From Promethearchaeota archaeon (GTDB taxonomy: Archaea; Asgardarchaeota; Lokiarchaeia; Sigyniarchaeales; SOKP01), in NCBI GenBank assembly GCA_048941015.1, contig JBHLNZ010000099.1:1-10006 (forward strand): 10,006 bases of DNA, read 5' to 3'. The notes below the pieces were generated by a model. It saw only the letters and a program-made list of their open reading frames with translations. It had not been told where the DNA came from and ran no database searches. The translations under genes and the position numbers were made by a program. Below are positions 1 to 10,006 of the stretch, piece by piece. How positions within the stretch are numbered: position 1 is the stretch's first letter; each line of letters starts with the position of its first letter.

Positions 1-1301
<1,301 letters not shown>

Positions 1302-1338
1302 TCAATTTAATATGAATCTATGAAAAATTTATTCTTAA

Positions 1339-2340
1339 TTACTTTTTAAGTAAGTTTTTGGCAACTTCGAAAGCATATTTATAATCGAATATTTTTAACC
1401 CCTTTGTATTAGCTGCTTCTTTAAGTATTTGAGCTTCTGAATCAGCTTTAAGTTTACCAAGAGCTAATGCCCCTATTGCAAAAATTCCAGGAAAAATCTC
1501 TTCATTCTTATACTTTGGTTTTATTCCTTCAATTCCATATGGAGGTACTAAATTTATATCAACAATTATTTTTTTTCCTTTTAATTTTTTAATAGATTCT
1601 TCTGATAAAATCTCTACTCCCGCTGCGGCTAAACACCAAATTATGTCAGCATCCTTACAAATATTTAACCTCTGTTCAGGATAAGGAGCAAAAATTCCTT
1701 TAATTTCGTTCGAATCTTGTTTAGCCTCATCACTTAATTCTTTTGCTAGATTACTAATAAATTTTTCATTTGATTTATCCCATGTTTCCACAATATAAGC
1801 TTTACAATGGTTTTTTGATGCTAGGACGGCTGCAATCCTTGCAACAGGCCCTGCTCCAAATATAACTACTTTTTTTCCTTCAATATTTGTAATATCATGC
1901 TTTTTGTTTAAAATGTCAATAGTCATTGCCACAACAGCAGAAGCAGTAGTATGAGATCCTCTGGGATCGATTATCACTGGACATTCGAAAGGCGGTATTA
2001 ATGATTTAATTACTTCTTTCGCAATTTTTTCTCCTTCATTAACATTTGATCCTCCTATGAAAAAAGTTGTGGGTGCATTTGGTTTACGTGAAAATATTGC
2101 ATCTTGAACTAGTTTTGGGACATACTGAGCACTCATTTTGCTAACTGGGACTACAATGTCAAAACCTGCATCATATGCCATATTAATATCAAATGGTGAA
2201 GCATTCTCATCTGTATCGAAAAAGTAGCAGATCTTATCCGTTGTATCTTTTTTTTTTATTATAATTGGTGAAAGTTCAATAATTGATTTTTTACCAAGTA
2301 TGTTTTCAATTATTGTTTCTGTCTTATTATTTTGGACCAT
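1339..2340 (-). CDS. mtdB: NAD(P)-dependent methylene-tetrahydromethanopterin (or -H4F) dehydrogenase, MtdA/MtdB family
   Basis: SPFDINMAYDAG, LVQDAIFSR, FIGG, DPRGSHTTASAVVA, Rossmann FGAGPV, AAAGVEIL, DINLVPPYGIEGI and GALALGKLK match MtdA/MtdB motifs in order. MtdA versus MtdB is not resolved by eye. Confidence 0.85.
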   Translation of the reverse strand: MVQNNKTETIIENILGKKSIIELSPIIIKKKDTTDKICYFFDTDENASPFDINMAYDAGFDIVVPVSKMSAQYVPKLVQDAIFSRKPNAPTTFFIGGSNVNEGEKIAKEVIKSLIPPFECPVIIDPRGSHTTASAVVAMTIDILNKKHDITNIEGKKVVIFGAGPVARIAAVLASKNHCKAYIVETWDKSNEKFISNLAKELSDEAKQDSNEIKGIFAPYPEQRLNICKDADIIWCLAAAGVEILSEESIKKLKGKKIIVDINLVPPYGIEGIKPKYKNEEIFPGIFAIGALALGKLKADSEAQILKEAANTKGLKIFDYKYAFEVAKNLLKK

Positions 2341-2384
2341 TTCTTATCTCACTTCCTTATTTTTTATAATTTTATAAATAAAAT

Positions 2385-3098
2385 TTATTTAATTGTATCA
2401 ATTTCAACCTCTTTTTCTAATTCCTCGGTTTTGATAACCCTTTTAATTTTTACTTGTTCAGTTTCAACTCCAAGTTCTTCAGCTAATTTTTCAAGACCAT
2501 CAAAATGTCTTAAATCGCAAATAAATAGTGCTTTTAATTTTTTACCTTCTGCATTTTTAGCGAGATTCAAAATATTCATCATCATCCACGCTTCTCTTAT
2601 TTTATATCTGACTTCATCTTCTTGAGAATTATAATCTTTTTGTAAATATTCTTTCCATAAGATTAATCGTTGAAAAAGTTCGTCATCCTTGGGAATATGA
2701 CCATTTTTTTCAACTATTCCTTTTATACGATCTTCCAATTTTTGCAACATAGTTCTATGTTCATCTAAAGCCGCTGAAAGATAATATTCTGCATTTTCTG
2801 AAATATCCGCATGTTTGAAAGGAATCCCCTTCTGATCGAAAAGCTTTTTTATTGGATCATTTGAATTATAAGGCCAGTAATTTGGTTTTTCTTCTAAAGC
2901 AAGATTTGGTTTATATCTCTCTATAATTGTGTCAATTAGTTCTAAATATTCTTTTGAAATTAGAAGTAGGTTCCATACCAAATCTTCCTTTTTTTCTTGG
3001 GGTATTTCAAACCACCAATCAATTGAAAATTCACTTTCGATCATTATTAATTTTAAAATTTTTTCTTTTAATGGTTTTAATTCTAAAACTTCAGGCAT
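2385..3098 (-). CDS. Hypothetical protein, possibly TraB/GumN/Tiki (EreA/ChaN-like) superfamily
   Basis: 237-aa ORF with GAGGGG RBS. YKPNLALEE, a helical insert, and REAWMMMNI...LFICDLRHFDGLEKLAEELG resemble the TraB/GumN P-x-x-h-x-x-E and R...h-h-h-G-x-x-H-x-x-G-L motifs. The CDS is solid; the family call is tentative. Confidence 0.75.
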   Translation of the reverse strand: MPEVLELKPLKEKILKLIMIESEFSIDWWFEIPQEKKEDLVWNLLLISKEYLELIDTIIERYKPNLALEEKPNYWPYNSNDPIKKLFDQKGIPFKHADISENAEYYLSAALDEHRTMLQKLEDRIKGIVEKNGHIPKDDELFQRLILWKEYLQKDYNSQEDEVRYKIREAWMMMNILNLAKNAEGKKLKALFICDLRHFDGLEKLAEELGVETEQVKIKRVIKTEELEKEVEIDTIK

Positions 3099-3123
3099 TT
3101 TTATTTTCCCCTCATTAAATTAT

Positions 3124-3747
3124 TTAAAATATTATATTTTGAACAGTGTGTTTTTTATTATAAGATATGACTTTTACCCCTAAGTCTCTCAAGTTCTCAG
3201 TAACTTGAGGACAAATATCTTCACATATATCTTCCTGAATAAAGTGTATAAAAGATATTGTTTCAGTATAAATTTTACAATTACGCGCTAAATCTAACAT
3301 TTTTTTAACAATCCATTGTGGTCTCAATTTTAAACTCAAAAATATCTCTTTTTCTTGAATTTCTTCTGCTAGCATGTCAATCCAATTGCGTAATGAAATC
3401 ATCTTATATGATTCTTTATCATCTTCCTTCTCATACTCTTCATATAATTCATTCAATAATTCTTGTTTGTCTAAAATCTCTTCATATAAATAGCCCATTG
3501 CAAATTCTGGAATATCTACTTGATAATAAGGAATTTTAAGTTCATCTAATAACTGTGCAAATGATGTTTTACTAAATTCATTCAAATTTACCTGAAAATC
3601 TACGGTCACAAAATTGATATTCTTTCTTTTTAAAAACTCCTTCAATTTTGGGATATCAGGGTTCTGAAAGTATTTAATATTTTCTTTTGAAGTCATATAT
3701 GAGACAATTCTCTTATTTTTTATTGGCTTTAATTCCAATACTTCCAT
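3124..3747 (-). CDS. Hypothetical protein, diverged paralog of 2385-3098
   Basis: 207-aa ORF with GAGGTG RBS (3762-3757). Shares EVLELKP, IP----DI, W---L, R--W----L-LA-N and LGV with its neighbour. Confidence 0.8.
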   Translation of the reverse strand: MEVLELKPIKNKRIVSYMTSKENIKYFQNPDIPKLKEFLKRKNINFVTVDFQVNLNEFSKTSFAQLLDELKIPYYQVDIPEFAMGYLYEEILDKQELLNELYEEYEKEDDKESYKMISLRNWIDMLAEEIQEKEIFLSLKLRPQWIVKKMLDLARNCKIYTETISFIHFIQEDICEDICPQVTENLRDLGVKVISYNKKHTVQNIIF

Positions 3748-3856
3748 TCTTTTTTACACCTCTCTGCCTTCTATTTTTAAATTGATTTTATTTACCTGAG
3801 TAAAAGATCAAATAGCCAAAATATAAAGAATTTGACAAGAAAATTTTTGGAAAAAT

Positions 3857-3872
3857 TGATAATAATTATTGT
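3857..3872. promoter_or_regulatory. Operator-like box A (imperfect palindrome)
   Basis: TGATAATAATTATTGT. The core GATAATAA|TTATTGTC (3858-3873) pairs at 7 of 8 positions, and the box is 14/16 identical to the reverse complement of box B. Confidence 0.45.
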
Positions 3873-3964
3873 CTTTTTCTAGATCTCAACTAATTATATT
3901 ATTATACTGAAATTGAACATCTAATTACTGACCATGTAAATTGAGTGATCGAAAATAGACAAGA

Positions 3965-3972
3965 TTTATATA
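3965..3972 (+). promoter_or_regulatory. Putative archaeal TATA box for the HTH-hdrA-mvh operon
   Basis: TTTATATA preceded by a purine-rich BRE-like stretch (GAAAATAGACAAGA), about 100 bp upstream of the start at 4072. The AT-rich background limits specificity. Confidence 0.45.
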
Positions 3973-3977
3973 ATCGT

Positions 3978-3993
3978 ACAATAATATTTATCA
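3978..3993. promoter_or_regulatory. Operator-like box B (inverted copy of box A)
   Basis: ACAATAATATTTATCA (reverse complement TGATAAATATTATTGT), immediately downstream of the putative TATA box. Confidence 0.45.
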
Positions 3994-4071
3994 TGAAGAA
4001 AAAAAAAATTGTCAAAAATTAACTTTTAACAAATAAAATATTAATTAGAAAAAAGGAAGGTTTGAATAAAA

Positions 4072-6618
4072 TTGGATGTATATTCAATCTTGTCTCATCC
4101 TTTTAGAAGAAAAATTTTACTTATACTTGAAAAAGAAGGGTATATCCCTTACACTGATTTAATGGAAAAGCTTGGACTTGATGCAACTGGTCAATTAAAT
4201 TTTCACTTAAAAAAACTGGGCACCTTAATAAGCAAAGACAAAAAATCCTATTATTTAACCGAAGATGGTAAAATTATTTTAAGATTAATGAATCTAAATA
4301 AACGTATTTTATCAGGGGAAAAAATTGAATACCTAGATAAAAAAGGAAGTGAAATAAATAGGATAGGCGTAATAATCTGTAATTGTAACACTGAAATTTC
4401 AAATGTTATTAATATAAATGCCCTTCAAAATTATATTGAAAAAATAAATAATGTAGTTTCTGTTAAAATTTTTAATAATTTATGTTTAGAACGCAATTTT
4501 GAAAAAATCACAAATTGGATTAAAGAAAATTTTTTAAATAAAATAGTAATCGCAGCATGCTCTCCAAAAACTCATCAACATATCTTTGAAAGAATTTTTC
4601 AAGATGCAATTGATCGTGTAAATATTGAAATTGCTAATTTAAGAGAACAATGTTGTTGGGTTCATAATTTTAGTGAAAAGCAATATGATCCCCTCTTTAC
4701 CTTAAAGAAAGCACAGTTATTAATTGAAGCTGCTGTAGAAAGAGTAGCTCTTCAAAAAGAAATTAAAGTTAAAACAGTTGAAGTTGAAAAAAGCTGTGCA
4801 ATATTGGGAGGGGGAATTGCTGGAATGTCGTTGGCTTTAAACTTGTCAAGAACGGGAATAAAAGTCTATCTTATAGAAAAGTCCCCTACTCTAGGGGGAA
4901 AAGTCGCACGTTGGCATAGGATTTCAGATATGGGTGATTGTTCTATTTGCTTTATTTCAGAATTAATTGGAGAGATTGCTAAAGAAAAAAATATTGAAAT
5001 TTTAACTAATACTGAAATTGAGAATGTTTCAGGAGAAGTAGGAAATTTTGTTATTGATTTAAATAAAAAACCTCGTTATATCGATGAAAAAAAGTGTACT
5101 GGTTGTAAACAATGTATTGATATATGTGGTAAAGAAAAAGTTAATCAATTTGAATTTAATTTGAATAGAAGAAAAGTAATATATCTCCCTTTCCAAAATG
5201 CTTATCCTTATATTCCTTTAATTGATGAAAATGACGTCAATAATTGCCTTAATTGTAGAATTTGTGAGCGTGCATGTATTAATCAAGCAATAGATTTAAC
5301 TCAAAAACCTGAAAATATAAAAATAAAAGTTGGAGCAAAGGTAATCGCAATTGGTGCCGATCTTTATCCTGACTTAGATGAATATCAATATAATCCTCAA
5401 AACAATATAATTACTTCTGCTGAATTTGAAAGAATTTTATCCTCGGATGGAATTACTGAAGGAAAGCTAATTAGACTTTCAGATGGAAAAGTAGTTAAAA
5501 CTGTATCTATAATACAAGAAGTAGGCTCTAATAGTTATCAATGCGAGTACATGGACTTATTAGCCAAAAAGTACATTAATGAAATAAAGATAAAAAATCC
5601 CAATTGCGAAGTAAATGTATTTTATGATTTAAGTAAGTTGAAAGAAAAAAATGAGCTTTTACTAAAATCTACACATCCACGATATCTTTATGCTAATAAC
5701 GTTTCAATAGAAATAAGAGAAGATAATAATTATATCATAGCAGATTCTATAGAATTTCCAAGTGATTTAATTATTTTAAACGTTAAGTTGCAGCCCAACA
5801 AAGATTTAAAGCATCTTAGAAAAATTATGGATTTCACTCTTGATGAAAACGGTTTTATGAGTGAGGAAACATTAGCTTCTGGTATTTTTGGGGTTGGGAC
5901 TATATTTGGACCATTAAATTATCAATCTACAATATCTACTGCTAATAATGTAGCTCTTAAAATTATTTCACAACTTTCAAACGACTTTTTAAAATCTGAA
6001 TTCACAGGGATAGAAATCAATGAAGAAAAATGTGGATTATGCGGTCTTTGCATTCAATCTTGTCCTTTTGGCGCAATAAGTATTGAATCAGAAAAAATTA
6101 GCATTGATAAGTTTAAATGTAAAGGATGTGGAACTTGTGTTAGCGTTTGTCCTACGAGTGCAATTGAAATGAACATTGATACTTCACAAAAAATATTTAA
6201 AACAATCGAAATTTTCGCAAAATATAATAGAAACCCCAAAATACTTGCTTTTTGCTGTCAATCTTGTGGTTATGCAGCTGCTGATGATGCTGGCTTAAAA
6301 AAGATTCTCTATTCTCCAAATATGTTCATAATTAGAGTTCCTTGTACTGGAAGGGTAGATGCAAATTTCATTTTGAAAGCTTTAGAGGTAGGTTTTGATG
6401 GAGTAATGATTATTGGTTGCAATAAAGACTCTTGTAGATATATAGACGGAATCCAGAAAGTGCAAAGGAAAGTGAGATTATTAAAAAAGCTTTTAGGTCC
6501 AAAAATAGGCAATCGAATTATAGTTAAAAATTTAAATGCCGTAGAGGGTCATAAGTTTGCTAAGATTACAAACAAATTTTATAATATTTTAATGGAGGAA
6601 ATTAAAAATGAAACTTAA
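4072..6618 (+). CDS. hdrA: Fusion protein: ArsR-like winged HTH + divergent HdrA-like flavo-Fe-S protein + MvhD [2Fe-2S] domain
   Basis: aa 1-~80: LSHPFRRKILLIL...YTDLMEKLGL..TGQLNFHLKKL...YYLTEDG (wHTH). From nt 4360, HdrA motifs: RIGVIICNC, VIAACSP, ANLREQCCWVH, GGGIAG, EKSPTLGG, DCSIC, an inserted 2x CxxCxxCxxxC ferredoxin, EFERIL, and a C-terminal 2x CxxCxxCxxxCP. From nt 6238, MvhD motifs: KILAFCCQSCGYAAAD, IIRVPCTGRVD, DGVMIIGC---SCRY. TTG start. Confidence 0.93.
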   Translation: MDVYSILSHPFRRKILLILEKEGYIPYTDLMEKLGLDATGQLNFHLKKLGTLISKDKKSYYLTEDGKIILRLMNLNKRILSGEKIEYLDKKGSEINRIGVIICNCNTEISNVININALQNYIEKINNVVSVKIFNNLCLERNFEKITNWIKENFLNKIVIAACSPKTHQHIFERIFQDAIDRVNIEIANLREQCCWVHNFSEKQYDPLFTLKKAQLLIEAAVERVALQKEIKVKTVEVEKSCAILGGGIAGMSLALNLSRTGIKVYLIEKSPTLGGKVARWHRISDMGDCSICFISELIGEIAKEKNIEILTNTEIENVSGEVGNFVIDLNKKPRYIDEKKCTGCKQCIDICGKEKVNQFEFNLNRRKVIYLPFQNAYPYIPLIDENDVNNCLNCRICERACINQAIDLTQKPENIKIKVGAKVIAIGADLYPDLDEYQYNPQNNIITSAEFERILSSDGITEGKLIRLSDGKVVKTVSIIQEVGSNSYQCEYMDLLAKKYINEIKIKNPNCEVNVFYDLSKLKEKNELLLKSTHPRYLYANNVSIEIREDNNYIIADSIEFPSDLIILNVKLQPNKDLKHLRKIMDFTLDENGFMSEETLASGIFGVGTIFGPLNYQSTISTANNVALKIISQLSNDFLKSEFTGIEINEEKCGLCGLCIQSCPFGAISIESEKISIDKFKCKGCGTCVSVCPTSAIEMNIDTSQKIFKTIEIFAKYNRNPKILAFCCQSCGYAAADDAGLKKILYSPNMFIIRVPCTGRVDANFILKALEVGFDGVMIIGCNKDSCRYIDGIQKVQRKVRLLKKLLGPKIGNRIIVKNLNAVEGHKFAKITNKFYNILMEEIKNET

Positions 6619-7366
6619 ATTTCTTATAACTTCGTTAACATCTTGTAGTGGGTGTATTTCAGCATTGATGTCTTTAGATATCTTTCCTCAATTTATTGAA
6701 AGAACAAAACTAATTTACTTCCCTTTTATTTATGATGAATTAGATATAAATGATTGTGAGATTGCTTTAATTGAAGGATGTGTTTCTGAAAGTAAGCAAA
6801 TTGAATATCTTAAAAAAATAAGAAAATATGCTAAGAAAGTATATGCTTTAGGAACTTGTGCTGCTTTTGGAGGAATTTTAAGTCTTTCCAAAAAAAAGGA
6901 AGCACTCCCAATTTCAAAGTTTATTGAAGTTGACAATATCATTCCCGGTTGTCCTCCTCCTTCAACACTATTTGGTAACTGCTTAATTAATTTGGTAGAA
7001 AACAAGGATTTTAAGTTATCAACAAAAAATTTATGCTTTGACTGTCCTTATAAAAAGGATTTAGAGAAAAATTCAGAAATGTTGATTACAAAATTAAATC
7101 CTAACTATAATGAGATCGAAGATATTGGTAAGAATTCGTCTTGCTTTTTAAATCGTGGAATATTATGTTTAGGCCCAATTACACGTGAGGGCTGTGATCA
7201 CCAATGTATAAATCAAAATATGCCTTGTGAAGGATGTCTGGGGCCAGTTTCAAAAGACTTTACTTCTAATATGGTAAATTTTTTGAGTATGGTTAAGATT
7301 TCTAAAGATTTGGAGAGATATAAGGGCATTTATTACAGATTTTCTAAACCCATTTTAAAGAGGTGA
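6608..7366 (+). CDS. mvhG: [NiFe]-hydrogenase small subunit, MvhG-like (group 3c)
   Basis: SCSGC, EGCV, GTCAAFGGI, IPGCPP, CFDCP, CFLNRGILCLGPITREGC---C-----PCEGCLGP, YYRFS. GGAGG RBS at 6594-6598; overlaps the upstream gene by 11 nt. Confidence 0.92.
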   Translation: MKLKFLITSLTSCSGCISALMSLDIFPQFIERTKLIYFPFIYDELDINDCEIALIEGCVSESKQIEYLKKIRKYAKKVYALGTCAAFGGILSLSKKKEALPISKFIEVDNIIPGCPPPSTLFGNCLINLVENKDFKLSTKNLCFDCPYKKDLEKNSEMLITKLNPNYNEIEDIGKNSSCFLNRGILCLGPITREGCDHQCINQNMPCEGCLGPVSKDFTSNMVNFLSMVKISKDLERYKGIYYRFSKPILKR

Positions 7367-7371
7367 TATTT

Positions 7372-8673
7372 TTGGAAAAAGTAATTGAGGTATGTTCTAG
7401 AATTGAGGGTTATGCAGAAATTAATCTTTTTTTAAATAATGAACAAATTAAATATATTAAATTAGATACTACGGTTTTTCGTGGTTTTGAAACCATTTTA
7501 AAAGGCAAAAAGTTAATTGATATTCCAAAAATAGTATCACGAATATGTGGACTATGTCATGCCTCCCAAACTATTGCAAGTTGTAAAGCTATTGAGGATT
7601 TATATAATATTTTTCCAAGTCCTCAAGCAGTATTATTAAGAAAACTCTTATTATCCGCAGAATTAATAAAGTCACATTGTTTGCATTTCTTTTTCCAAAC
7701 TTTGCCAGATATGTTAAATATCTTCAATTTATGGAATACAACTAATGAAAACACTAACATTCTTCAATTTGATACTCAAACAACGACCATTATATATGAT
7801 TTAATTAAATTAGCTACAAAAATAAATGAAAGTTTTGGCGGAAGGGTTTTGCATTTAATTACACCGATTCCAGGAGGAATTGTGTATAAACCTAGTCAAA
7901 GAAATATAACATTATCTCAAAAAGCGCTTCAAAAAGCATTATTTAATTCAGAATATCTTATTAAGAAATTTATAAATCTCTTTTCAAAATTTAAGCCCCC
8001 TGAAGAATATAATCTAAATAGAATTTCATATTTAGGATTAACAAATAATGGAAGCTATGATAGATATAATGGGCTTTTAAGATTAAAACAAATTGATAAG
8101 CAACTTAAAGATTTTCCTATAAACCTTTATTCAGATTATTTTGATAAAGATGAAGAAATTATTGGGATTCAATTTAAATCTGAAATTGGAGAGAGGGTAT
8201 TGACAGGCCCAATATCAAGGTATAAAATAAACGAAAAATATAACCATGGGACTATTAAAGATTATCTTAATCAATTTGATAATCAATGGAAAAATTCTAT
8301 TCTATTTTGGAATTTTCTACAATTAATAGAAATAAATTCTGAAATTATGGAAAGCATTGAGATTTTAAAAGATAAGAAATTGAATAATAATAGTACTTAT
8401 CCTGTTCTAAAATCTTTAAAGAGCAAGGATGGAATTGGTGCTGTAGAAGCTCCAAGAGGAACATTAATACATCACTATCATCTGAATGAAAGTAATTTAG
8501 TAGATAGTGTGAAATTATATGTAGCAACTGAAATTAACATGCCTTTAATCAATGCAATGATTACCCATTATGCTCAGAAGTTGTATGAAAAGGAAAGTGT
8601 AGATACAGTTATGAAAAAAATCCAGATTATGATAAGATCATTTGATCCGTGTATATCTTGTGCAACTCATTAA
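7372..8673 (+). CDS. mvhA: [NiFe]-hydrogenase large subunit, MvhA-like, without a C-terminal extension
   Basis: SRIEG, RGFE, L1 RICGLCHASQ, SH--HFF, VEAPRGTLIHHY, VAT--N, and L2 RSFDPCISCATH followed by stop. The start is probably TTG 7372, because GAGGTGA (7360-7366) is a strong archaeal RBS 5 nt upstream; the track's GTG 7363 lies inside that RBS. Confidence 0.94.
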   Translation: MEKVIEVCSRIEGYAEINLFLNNEQIKYIKLDTTVFRGFETILKGKKLIDIPKIVSRICGLCHASQTIASCKAIEDLYNIFPSPQAVLLRKLLLSAELIKSHCLHFFFQTLPDMLNIFNLWNTTNENTNILQFDTQTTTIIYDLIKLATKINESFGGRVLHLITPIPGGIVYKPSQRNITLSQKALQKALFNSEYLIKKFINLFSKFKPPEEYNLNRISYLGLTNNGSYDRYNGLLRLKQIDKQLKDFPINLYSDYFDKDEEIIGIQFKSEIGERVLTGPISRYKINEKYNHGTIKDYLNQFDNQWKNSILFWNFLQLIEINSEIMESIEILKDKKLNNNSTYPVLKSLKSKDGIGAVEAPRGTLIHHYHLNESNLVDSVKLYVATEINMPLINAMITHYAQKLYEKESVDTVMKKIQIMIRSFDPCISCATH

Positions 8674-8726
8674 AATTTTAATTTAAAATGTAAAATCTTA
8701 AATAAAAATGACAATGGAGGCTTTAA

Positions 8727-9761
8727 TTGGTGAATTTTTTTAATACAGATAATAATAAGGAAAATAGATCCAAAGAATTATGTGATATTTATTTACTTTA
8801 TTTTGATGAAACTCTTGGGCATATCCCTTTACTTATCCATCCAAATGATCAAGATAAAAATGATGAGGACATAATGCGCATCATAACATTTCATCCCATC
8901 TGGTTTCTGAATGAAAAAGAACAAGACTCTCTTAATCGTATAGACTTAGAATATAACAAAAAGATGTATTTTGCTAAAAAGTTCTATATAAAATCAGATA
9001 GGAAAAAAAGAAGAGCGGGACTTGAACAATCTGATATTGAGAAAATCGTTTTAATTATTGTTTTACCAACGGATTTAGACATTTTTGGGGGCGCACTCTT
9101 AAATAAAATGACAGAAATTATTAAGATCGAATACCAAAATACTTTATTCAAAATTATTGAATCTGAAATCGCAAAGCTTGAGGTTTTAAAAACAGTAAAA
9201 TTAAAAGAAATTATTAATAACGGAAATCTGGAACGAAATAAGCTAAAAAATACAATTACTATTTTTTGTAAAGAATATTTCTCATCGGTTATTAAACAGA
9301 AAGATGCAACAACTATTAAACTGCAAAAAGCGATTTCTTTTCTCTTATTAAAAGGAATTGATATTAGTTATATTACTAGTGATATAGAAAAGAATAATTT
9401 TTCAAATATCAGATTATTTGATCCAGAGAAAAAAACTCCTAACTTATTACAATCAAAAGAAAATTTTAAAATTTTAAACCAGACTATTGATGCGGATTTT
9501 GGGGAGTTTGAAATCTTAGTAAAAAATCAAAGTTCCAAGGATTTAATTAATGTTTATATAAAAATCACTTACGTTAAAGATTTTTTTGAAAAAGAAATTC
9601 TAAGTGAAAAAGTAGAAAAGTGGTTGTCACAGGAAGAATTAATGTTTATTACTCCTATCGTTCCTGGAATTTTAAATTACTTGTTTTTAGTTACAGAAGA
9701 AGATCAAAAGAAAATTAAATTTTCAAGAAAAATTAATTTTGAGAAAATAAGTATGATTTAG
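8727..9761 (+). CDS. Hypothetical protein: putative N-terminal longin/uDENN-like domain and C-terminal Ig/CARDB-like beta domain
   Basis: 344 aa, GGAGG RBS at 8716-8720. IYLLYFDETLGHIPLLIHP resembles the uDENN/longin F-D-x-x-x-G-x-x-x-x-x-x-P start. FEILVKNQSSKDLINVYIKITY resembles Ig-like strands. Domain calls are tentative. Confidence 0.75.
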   Translation: MVNFFNTDNNKENRSKELCDIYLLYFDETLGHIPLLIHPNDQDKNDEDIMRIITFHPIWFLNEKEQDSLNRIDLEYNKKMYFAKKFYIKSDRKKRRAGLEQSDIEKIVLIIVLPTDLDIFGGALLNKMTEIIKIEYQNTLFKIIESEIAKLEVLKTVKLKEIINNGNLERNKLKNTITIFCKEYFSSVIKQKDATTIKLQKAISFLLLKGIDISYITSDIEKNNFSNIRLFDPEKKTPNLLQSKENFKILNQTIDADFGEFEILVKNQSSKDLINVYIKITYVKDFFEKEILSEKVEKWLSQEELMFITPIVPGILNYLFLVTEEDQKKIKFSRKINFEKISMI

Positions 9762-10006
9762 TATTGGAATTCTCTATTTCTTAATTTCGATACCAAATGC
9801 CCTCTGCTAATTAATTGAATTCCAAATTGGGAGGAATAATCACGAGAAAAATCTGTAGCGATATTACATACCATAATACCTCCGTCAATATTAGGAATAT
9901 CTACGCATGCTTTATGTAATTGTCTTAGTTGAGTTATTGAAATTTCTCGCTTCCAATCACGAATAAATATTCCAAACCTACCATTTTTTCCATTATTTAC
10001 AATAGC
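9758..10006 (-). CDS. C-terminal part of an Mrr-like restriction-endonuclease-fold protein (probably catalytically degenerate)
   Basis: Manual translation: AIVNNGKNGRFGIFIRDWKREISITQLRQLHKACVDIPNIDGGIMVCNIATDFSRDYSSQFGIQLISRGHLVSKLRNREFQY*. The pattern resembles the Mrr_cat C-terminal half. Its stop (9760-9758) overlaps the stop of the convergent gene. Confidence 0.65.
   Translation of the reverse strand, partial: AIVNNGKNGRFGIFIRDWKREISITQLRQLHKACVDIPNIDGGIMVCNIATDFSRDYSSQFGIQLISRGHLVSKLRNREFQY

Follow-up and report, generated by a model that had tools for sequence, protein, structure and literature searches.

PutA of Escherichia coli and Salmonella is reportedly a flavoenzyme with an N-terminal DNA-binding domain that represses its own gene and a divergent one, the redox state of its cofactor being the signal. 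A gene of similar design lies in a 10,006-nt stretch of DNA from a Promethearchaeota archaeon (contig JBHLNZ010000099.1, positions 1 to 10,006, forward strand; assembly GCA_048941015.1), which as a whole is termed the window. In its product, an ArsR-like winged helix-turn-helix (wHTH) domain precedes HdrA and MvhD in one polypeptide. Genes for MvhG- and MvhA-like [NiFe]-hydrogenase subunits follow, and a divergent operon comprises p207, p237 and a gene for a methylene-tetrahydromethanopterin (H4MPT) dehydrogenase-like (Mtd-like) enzyme. From its architecture, operator and genomic context, the system is predicted to belong to the trigger enzymes or one-component regulators. PutA is alike in that a flavin-dependent redox enzyme carries its own N-terminal DNA-binding domain. 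It differs by using a ribbon-helix-helix instead of a wHTH, by its unrelated enzyme part and by being bacterial, and regulation by the HdrA-MvhD protein is a prediction.

A connection between a hydrogenase and the control of hydrogenase genes exists in the regulatory [NiFe] hydrogenases HoxBC/HupUV, which are said to signal via a histidine kinase and a response regulator (HoxJ-HoxA). Their large subunit, like the one encoded here, has no C-terminal extension. By contrast, the predicted DNA-binding domain of our system is located within the complex, and the hydrogenase is the sole one detected in the genome. ArsR/SmtB repressors (SmtB 1SMT, CadC 1U2W, NolR 4OMY, Rv0081 6JMI, 1Y0U) share with the new protein the fold, the predicted α1/α5 dimer and a palindromic operator. 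However, the new protein has no α3N/α5 metal site, remains below the cut-offs of ArsR-specific profiles and has its wHTH joined to an enzyme, not as a protein by itself.

An archaeal precedent is RbkR, in which a riboflavin kinase is joined to a wHTH-like domain. The operators of RbkR are located at its own gene and at genes of the pathway, and it was comparative genomics that first revealed its regulon (PMC5397151). RbkR resembles the predicted HdrA-MvhD regulator as an archaeal enzyme-wHTH protein. Whereas RbkR phosphorylates a small molecule and binds DNA under the influence of cytidine triphosphate and flavin mononucleotide, the HdrA-MvhD fusion is a multi-cofactor redox subunit of a hydrogenase. 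The enzyme part itself has counterparts in the methanogen MvhAGD-HdrABC complex (5ODC, 8RVU, 7BKB, 9SW2) and in HdrA-MvhD of the Methanosarcina HdrA2 type. HdrA and MvhD align with solved chains of the complex, HdrA2 is the best NCBIfam match, and mvhG and mvhA follow here, too. The solved HdrA chains start where aa 92-97 of the fusion protein align, so none of them has a wHTH. Furthermore, one cluster motif is lost in our protein, hdrBC are not adjacent, and its 583 bits are far below the HdrA2 cut-off of 1100.

A winged helix in one frame with HdrA and MvhD

The fusion gene (4072-6618, +) encodes 848 aa in a frame that is uninterrupted over 848 codons and starts with TTG. A Shine-Dalgarno-like AGGAAGG can be read 11 nt before this codon (4054-4060, +), and related loci contain a purine-rich block at the equivalent position. 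The TTG at 4072 aligns with the initial Met of the homologues. Since these begin with MD[IV]YSILSHPFR, it is the true start. The window is AT-rich (24-34% GC), and its relatives are labelled Promethearchaeota (Lokiarchaeota) or assigned to other Asgard groups.

The original prediction, made from the letters of the window, was that about 95 residues with an ArsR-like wHTH precede the HdrA motif RIGVIICNC in frame. This is the case: 96 residues (aa 1-96) stand ahead of R97-IGVIICNC, Pfam DUF7347 matches them with E 7.4e-12, and the single 848-codon frame is kept in homologues. It was further claimed that no Met codon lies at the junction, the nearest being about 24 codons upstream, and that the HdrA part does not look as if it had a start of its own. 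Both points hold. Among codons 60-130, the sole in-frame ATG, GTG or TTG is the ATG of codon 73 (M73) within the last wHTH helix, and neither a stop codon nor a start-like codon is found in frame at the wHTH/HdrA junction. On the opposite strand of 4072-4360, there is no open reading frame (ORF) of 50 aa or more. That two genes were merged by a sequencing, assembly or gene-calling error has a negligible probability. The assembly is of the metagenome type and consists of 144 contigs (3.59 Mb, 95% complete; the source contig is C53 in our numbering), but the same open frame of ~849 aa recurs in hundreds of independent assemblies. In addition to the lack of start or stop codons at the junction, R97 and G99 do not vary within the fused family, and the most distant members show no more than conservative exchanges at these positions.

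aa 1-81 (4072-4314, +) constitute the ArsR-like wHTH, as judged from Pfam, AlphaFold2 (AF2) models, Foldseek and composition. DUF7347 (PF24038), a family of ArsR-like archaeal wHTH domains, matches aa 2-71 with E 7.4e-12 and 45.8 bits (cut-off 27.6). HTH_24 also exceeds its cut-off (26.2 bits vs 21.9), so that the profile comparison proposed along with the original prediction ended in favour of a wHTH. ArsR-specific profiles remain below their cut-offs (HTH_20, 19.8 bits vs 27; NCBIfam HTH_metalloreg, 23.7 vs 55), and HTH_5 does not match the wHTH-HdrA-MvhD protein. In the full-length AF2 model (predicted local distance difference test, pLDDT, 87), aa 10-75 are confidently a winged helix. The isolated domain (pLDDT 85.6) has the topology α0-α1-β-α2-αR-wing-α5, with α0 at aa 3-7, α1 at 10-22, a β-strand at 24-26, α2 at 27-34, the recognition helix at 39-52, the wing at 53-62 and the dimerisation helix at 64-81. 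This corresponds in the models to the ArsR/SmtB topology α1-α2-α3-αR-β1-β2-α5 with an α1/α5 dimer. The nearest solved folds found by Foldseek are all dimeric repressors: YodB, SarZ, NolR-DNA, CadC, ArsR, HlyU, SmtB and Rv0081 (E 3e-3 to 2e-2, template-modelling score 0.57-0.68). By sequence, the putative ArsR 1Y0U comes closest among the solved proteins.

The recognition helix (aa 39-52, TGQLNFHLKKLGTL; 4186-4227, +) was examined in two alignments, one of the fused family and one across the phylum. Its pattern TG.LN[FY]HLKKL is near-invariant among homologues: throughout the phylum, N43, H45 and L46 do not vary, and T39 and G40 hardly do. Of all segments of the protein, the wHTH is the best conserved in the fused family, with a mean top-residue frequency of 0.86 compared to 0.79 in the flavoprotein core. 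The domain is basic (isoelectric point, pI, 9.6), is free of Cys and includes just two His (H9 and H45) among aa 1-81. An ArsR-type metal/thiol site (α3N Cys, α5 His/Asp/Glu ligands) was not found in aa 1-81. As the wHTH has no metal or ligand site, any sensing must come from the rest of the protein.

According to a homodimer model of aa 1-100, which displays likeness to solved ArsR dimers and is no proof of pairing, two wHTH copies may associate. The model scored 0.62 and the best of three controls 0.00; the mark applied is reached by 20 of 30 proteins solved as same-chain pairs and by one of 23 solved as single chains. Contacts agree by at least 79% between three runs, with a partner pLDDT of at least 81. 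The interface is formed by residues 1-13 and 68-88, i.e. it is the α1/α5 interface of ArsR. Between the wHTH and HdrA, aa 82-96 (4315-4359, +) form a linker without a start codon. Its pLDDT is below 50 for aa 84-93, and its length is similar and its sequence variable between families. G82 is invariant across all families. In the models, the linker looks like a flexible tether.

The HdrA body (aa 97-713; 4360-6210, +) has the expected HdrA order of N-terminal Cys4, flavin adenine dinucleotide (FAD)/thioredoxin-reductase-like, inserted ferredoxin and C-terminal ferredoxin domains. HdrA2 is the best NCBIfam match (aa 97-841, E 9e-175), and the HdrA2 equivalog cut-offs are not reached (NF040770, 582.9 bits vs 1100; NF041778, 379 vs 1400). 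aa 92-713 are colinear with HdrA of 8RVU (chain a) and 5ODC (E 3e-111). C103, C105, C138, C163 and the GGGIAG motif are invariant in the fused family. The canonical CSRVCC-type [4Fe-4S] motif is replaced by EYMDLLAKKY (aa 480-502; 5509-5577, +). The MvhD/FlpD domain (aa 721-840; 6232-6591, +) aligns with solved MvhD chains, and the Pfam profile FlpD/MvhD matches aa 724-840 (E 9e-35, 119.8 bits vs a cut-off of 22.3).

Searching with aa 1-220 yielded 191 clusters at 65-93% identity, nearly all of ~849 aa and with the PF24038, HdrA and MvhD families, and the fusion is present in 68 species-representative genomes. The fused form hence dominates, and the objection raised beforehand, that homologues might encode HTH and HdrA as separate genes, fails. 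When 400 genomes of the phylum were scanned with aa 1-140, 139 matches were obtained and the fusion was seen in about 120 genomes; a fusion was counted as full-length when the match spans 1-139/140 inside a ~850-aa frame. It occurs in 91 of the 134 genomes of the own family (f1) and, at 38-56% identity, also in families f4, f5, f6, f19, f21, f28 and f31. Clustering at 50% added three fused representatives, P0148, P0154 and the partial P0123, whose cluster includes the 836-aa P0273. One convincing stand-alone relative of the wHTH was detected: P0274 has 93 aa, and its stop codon overlaps the start of a p237-Mtd-like gene.

The fusion had been considered new. No paper on a DNA-binding HdrA or a wHTH-HdrA fusion was found in the searchable literature, which does not cover much of the subscription literature. 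The architecture as such is not new to public protein databases. They hold it unremarked, and some partial copies are named 'DUF7347 domain-containing protein'.

Some individual entries deserve mention. A 147-aa 'split' form in a metagenome-assembled genome of Sigynarchaeota was rejected as a separate gene. It keeps the junction (…ISRVGVITCNC), continues into unrelated GC-rich sequence at the contig end and is a probable chimera. A contig with the full Asgard-type locus (L049) is labelled 'Candidatus Nanopelagicaceae bacterium' and was probably mis-binned. The genome under study encodes a second DUF7347-headed enzyme of 659 aa, the C-terminal part of which resembles anaerobic ribonucleotide reductase (NrdD) (G000:C109, L008:4705-6684, -). 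A similar frame of 671 aa is present in genome G357.

A conserved dyad upstream of the fusion gene and of p207

Intergenic regions of 32 loci with the same divergent neighbour were aligned. Although neutral DNA is expected to be randomised at ~70% protein identity, conserved blocks persist. On the hdrA side, a TATA-like TTTA[TA]ATA is followed by a dyad and an extra half-site TTT[GA]TCAAAA. The order on the p207 side is TTTGACAAG and then TTGATAA-N6-TT[GA]TCAAAA. The core of the dyad is the 16-bp GAYAA-N6-TTRTC, the half-site centres of which are 11 bp apart. This spacing fits a dimeric winged helix.

In the window, the candidate TATA box of the wHTH-hdrA promoter, whose role is deduced from the conserved block, reads TTTATATA (3965-3972, +). 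The promoter-proximal dyad TACAATAATATTTATC (3977-3992) starts 5 nt after it and has one mismatch to GAYAA-N6-TTRTC. An extra half-site, TTGTCAAA (4009-4016), follows this dyad at a distance of about two helical turns. The distal dyad GATAATAATTATTGTC (3858-3873) is perfect and lies upstream of the divergent p207 promoter. There, a second conserved half-site, TTTGACAA (3831-3838), abuts the candidate p207 TATA box at 3819-3828, which reads AAATATAAAG on the + strand.

At 66 loci, 42 copies of GAYAA-N6-TTRTC were counted within the 23.1 kb preceding the gene, as against 44 in all of the other 788 kb, which amounts to a 33-fold enrichment. With spacers of 3-5 or 7-10 bp, these half-sites were found 0-1 times. 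Most of the 44 other dyads are predicted operator sites, too, situated before an frhB-like lead gene or before p207: they lie at -1300 to -1520 where an frhB-like gene separates the promoter from wHTH-hdrA, and ~100 nt upstream of p207 where the p207 operon is located elsewhere. Even then, the dyad precedes the p207-p237-Mtd-like operon. The linkage extends to distant families. At 16 such loci (36-66% protein identity, 26-62% GC), 21 dyads with spacer 6 compare with 0-5 for each other spacer. They are mainly found before wHTH-hdrA or the p207/p237-Mtd-like genes, even where the operon has moved behind mvhA. In a Sigynarchaeota locus with 52% GC, three copies of ACAA-N6-TTGT are all inside one intergenic region.

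Within the own genome, the strict dyad with spacer 6 is no commoner than other spacers or same-composition controls. This means that the dyad is not a general promoter element. A wider regulon in this genome was therefore rejected: there is no genome-wide excess of spacer 6, and the two sites of the window rank only 25 and 175 by position weight matrix (PWM). One of the top PWM matches is a perfect dyad 118 nt upstream of the methylene-tetrahydrofolate reductase genes metV-metF (G000:C91:21996; L106:2497). Of 30 related genomes, the nearest relative alone shares it, and metV-metF was therefore discarded as a regulon member; probably, this site arose by chance or was gained recently. Likewise, genome G257 had to be dismissed as a fusion-less genome that keeps the dyad, since its contig breaks off immediately behind the frhB-like gene, at the point where wHTH-hdrA follows elsewhere.

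All six fusion-less f1 genomes outside genus g6 (G234, G250, G249, G166, G151 and G169; near-complete) are also devoid of the Mtd-like gene. Fusion and Mtd-like unit seem to be gained and lost together. The fusion-less genomes of genus g6 contain tandem Mtd-like genes, and no dyad adjoins these.

A predicted trigger-enzyme subunit

Fold, fusion, conservation, dyad and linkage between dyad and gene are established here. From the near-invariant recognition helix and the palindrome conserved together with it, we infer that the wHTH binds DNA. With a probability of roughly 60%, the protein is a bifunctional subunit of the trigger-enzyme type, that is a hydrogenase partner with a tethered wHTH that represses its own promoter. 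Probably, this HdrA-MvhD subunit also controls the neighbouring operon in addition to its own. Repression as the sign of this control and the nature of the signal are likewise inferred.

The proposed mechanism is as follows. HdrA-MvhD would serve the MvhG/MvhA [NiFe] hydrogenase, the genes of which come immediately after its own, as flavin/iron-sulfur partner. Its wHTH (81 residues) would be held on a flexible tether of ~15 residues, and two copies would pair via α1 and α5, with support from the HdrA dimer that is seen in solved complexes. Such a pair is predicted to bind the 16-bp dyad GAYAA-N6-TTRTC. A repressor site behind the TATA box is the usual archaeal mode of autorepression, and the position of the dyad directly behind the TATA box of the gene implies this mode here: binding would block polymerase recruitment. 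From the dyad upstream of the p207 TATA box, the p207-p237-Mtd-like operon might be either repressed or activated. Most likely, the HdrA/Mvh module would provide the signal through its redox or assembly state, so that H2 or reduced carriers would be sensed. Release from DNA might be caused, as in PutA, by flavin reduction.

More tentatively, and with odds that we place below even, the whole Mvh-HdrA complex might sit on DNA as a one-component H2/redox sensor. Its HdrA flavin and clusters would respond to electrons from H2 or to the back-pressure of reduced carriers, and their state would, via the tether, release the wHTH dimer from the dyad or engage it there. In this case, expression of hydrogenase and Mtd-like operon would be coupled directly to hydrogen availability. 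Asgard archaea are the archaeal lineage closest to eukaryotes, and present-day models of their physiology and of eukaryogenesis assign a central role to the exchange of H2 with partners. We know of no data on H2 sensing or hydrogenase control in this group. If correct, our proposal would for the first time connect H2/redox state directly with transcription in Asgard archaea. It would also add a new kind of trigger enzyme, in which a hydrogenase-associated flavoprotein of the electron-bifurcation type contains its own repressor domain and has a small, well-defined operator, and tie p207 and p237, whose function is unknown, as well as the Mtd-like enzyme to the hydrogenase.

Several observations weigh against a bifunctional subunit. 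Binding of the dyad by the wHTH is predicted only, and another, unlinked regulator could use this site. The promoter-proximal dyad is mismatched in its left half, and both sites of the window, ranking 25 and 175, are not the best PWM matches of the own genome. Family f28 has the fusion without a strict dyad upstream, and no convincing alternative palindrome was seen there. No dyad lies upstream of the stand-alone relative P0274, where TTGTC half-sites are present. Finally, the [4Fe-4S] motif is lost and hdrB and hdrC are absent from the operon, so that a catalytic role is uncertain.

The rank of the window sites and family f28 would also fit a wHTH that binds DNA at other targets, or without specificity as a tether to the nucleoid, and that is associated with the dyad by coincidence. 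We consider this quite improbable, as the 33-fold enrichment at the own promoter is specific for the 6-bp spacer and the dyad persists in GC-rich genomes, where chance matches are rare. An unlikely alternative is that the wHTH does not bind DNA at all and helps in docking or assembly, for instance of a partner protein or of the HdrA dimer, the dyad belonging to another regulator. Winged helices act as protein-protein modules in many complexes, the dimer model suggests that this one can pair, and the N-terminal domain shared with the NrdD-like enzyme of the same genome could indicate a general role unrelated to DNA. However, the exposed polar residues N43 and H45, and mostly also K47 and K48, are conserved across lineages at 36-45% identity, and the domain is basic (pI 9.6). 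Moreover, the dyad travels with the gene across the phylum, and no other DNA-binding gene is conserved at the locus.

Hydrogenase context and neighbouring genes

At nearly all loci of sufficient length, mvhG and mvhA come after the fusion gene. In the window, the mvhG-like gene for the [NiFe]-hydrogenase small subunit (6608-7366, +; Pfam Oxidored_q6) overlaps the fusion gene by 11 nt and is itself overlapped by the mvhA-like gene for the large subunit (7363-8673, +; Pfam NiFeSe_Hases). The NiFeSe_Hases profile matches the MvhA-like subunit at both ends only, the N-terminal Ni motif being RICGLCHASQ. The protein terminates with ...DPCISCATH and has no C-terminal extension. This NiFe large subunit is the only one in the 95% complete genome, in which no signature of an FeFe or group-4 hydrogenase was found. 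Elsewhere, the genome contains 13 MvhD-type and about 20 HdrB-type genes.

These features bear on the idea that wHTH-HdrA-MvhD/MvhG/MvhA is purely a sensor, i.e. a regulatory, non-catabolic hydrogenase that reports H2 like HoxBC/HupUV, here without a kinase. Large subunits of sensory hydrogenases reportedly have no cleavable C-terminal tail, and the ...DPCISCATH end leaves no tail to cleave. The absence of hdrB and hdrC from the operon, the loss of the [4Fe-4S] motif from the HdrA body and the presence of a DNA-binding head together with an operator dyad would agree with this idea, too. Still, we regard it as rather unlikely. A sensor without an enzyme to regulate is less economical, and this is the sole hydrogenase detected in the 95% complete genome; no second hydrogenase in the own genome and no kinase in the conserved locus were found, both of which a group 2b-like regulatory system would comprise. 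In addition, the distant fused members P0148 and P0154 retain the cluster motif (CS.YCC), and the HdrB-like genes elsewhere in the genome could argue for catalysis. The cultured relative MK-D1 is reported to possess a single MvhADG-HdrABC hydrogenase, which serves H2 production (PMC7015854).

The divergent operon (1339-3747, -) comprises p207 (3124-3747), p237 (2385-3098) and the methylene-H4MPT dehydrogenase-like gene (1339-2340). In several genomes, p237, which belongs to no known family, and the Mtd-like gene are fused to frames of 558-565 aa (L042:1748-3424; L101:4925-6607). Given these fused forms, p237 probably works with the Mtd-like enzyme. p207 and p237 may be distant paralogues.

At L030 (5759-6850, +) and about 20 other loci, a 363-aa FrhB/FdhB-like gene is located between the operator pair and wHTH-hdrA and is the first of the operon. 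Another HdrA was encountered at L030:3290-5029 (-), L042:4516-6468 (-) and L101:1996-3735 (+), where an in-frame stop divides it into parts of 101/172 and 472 aa. It adjoins the same operator region and is divergent from the frhB-like/wHTH-hdrA operon. It is probably a selenocysteine (TGA) HdrA. Behind mvhA, the window contains a 344-aa ORF (8727-9761, +) that matches no family and is syntenic in many related loci at 32-84% identity.

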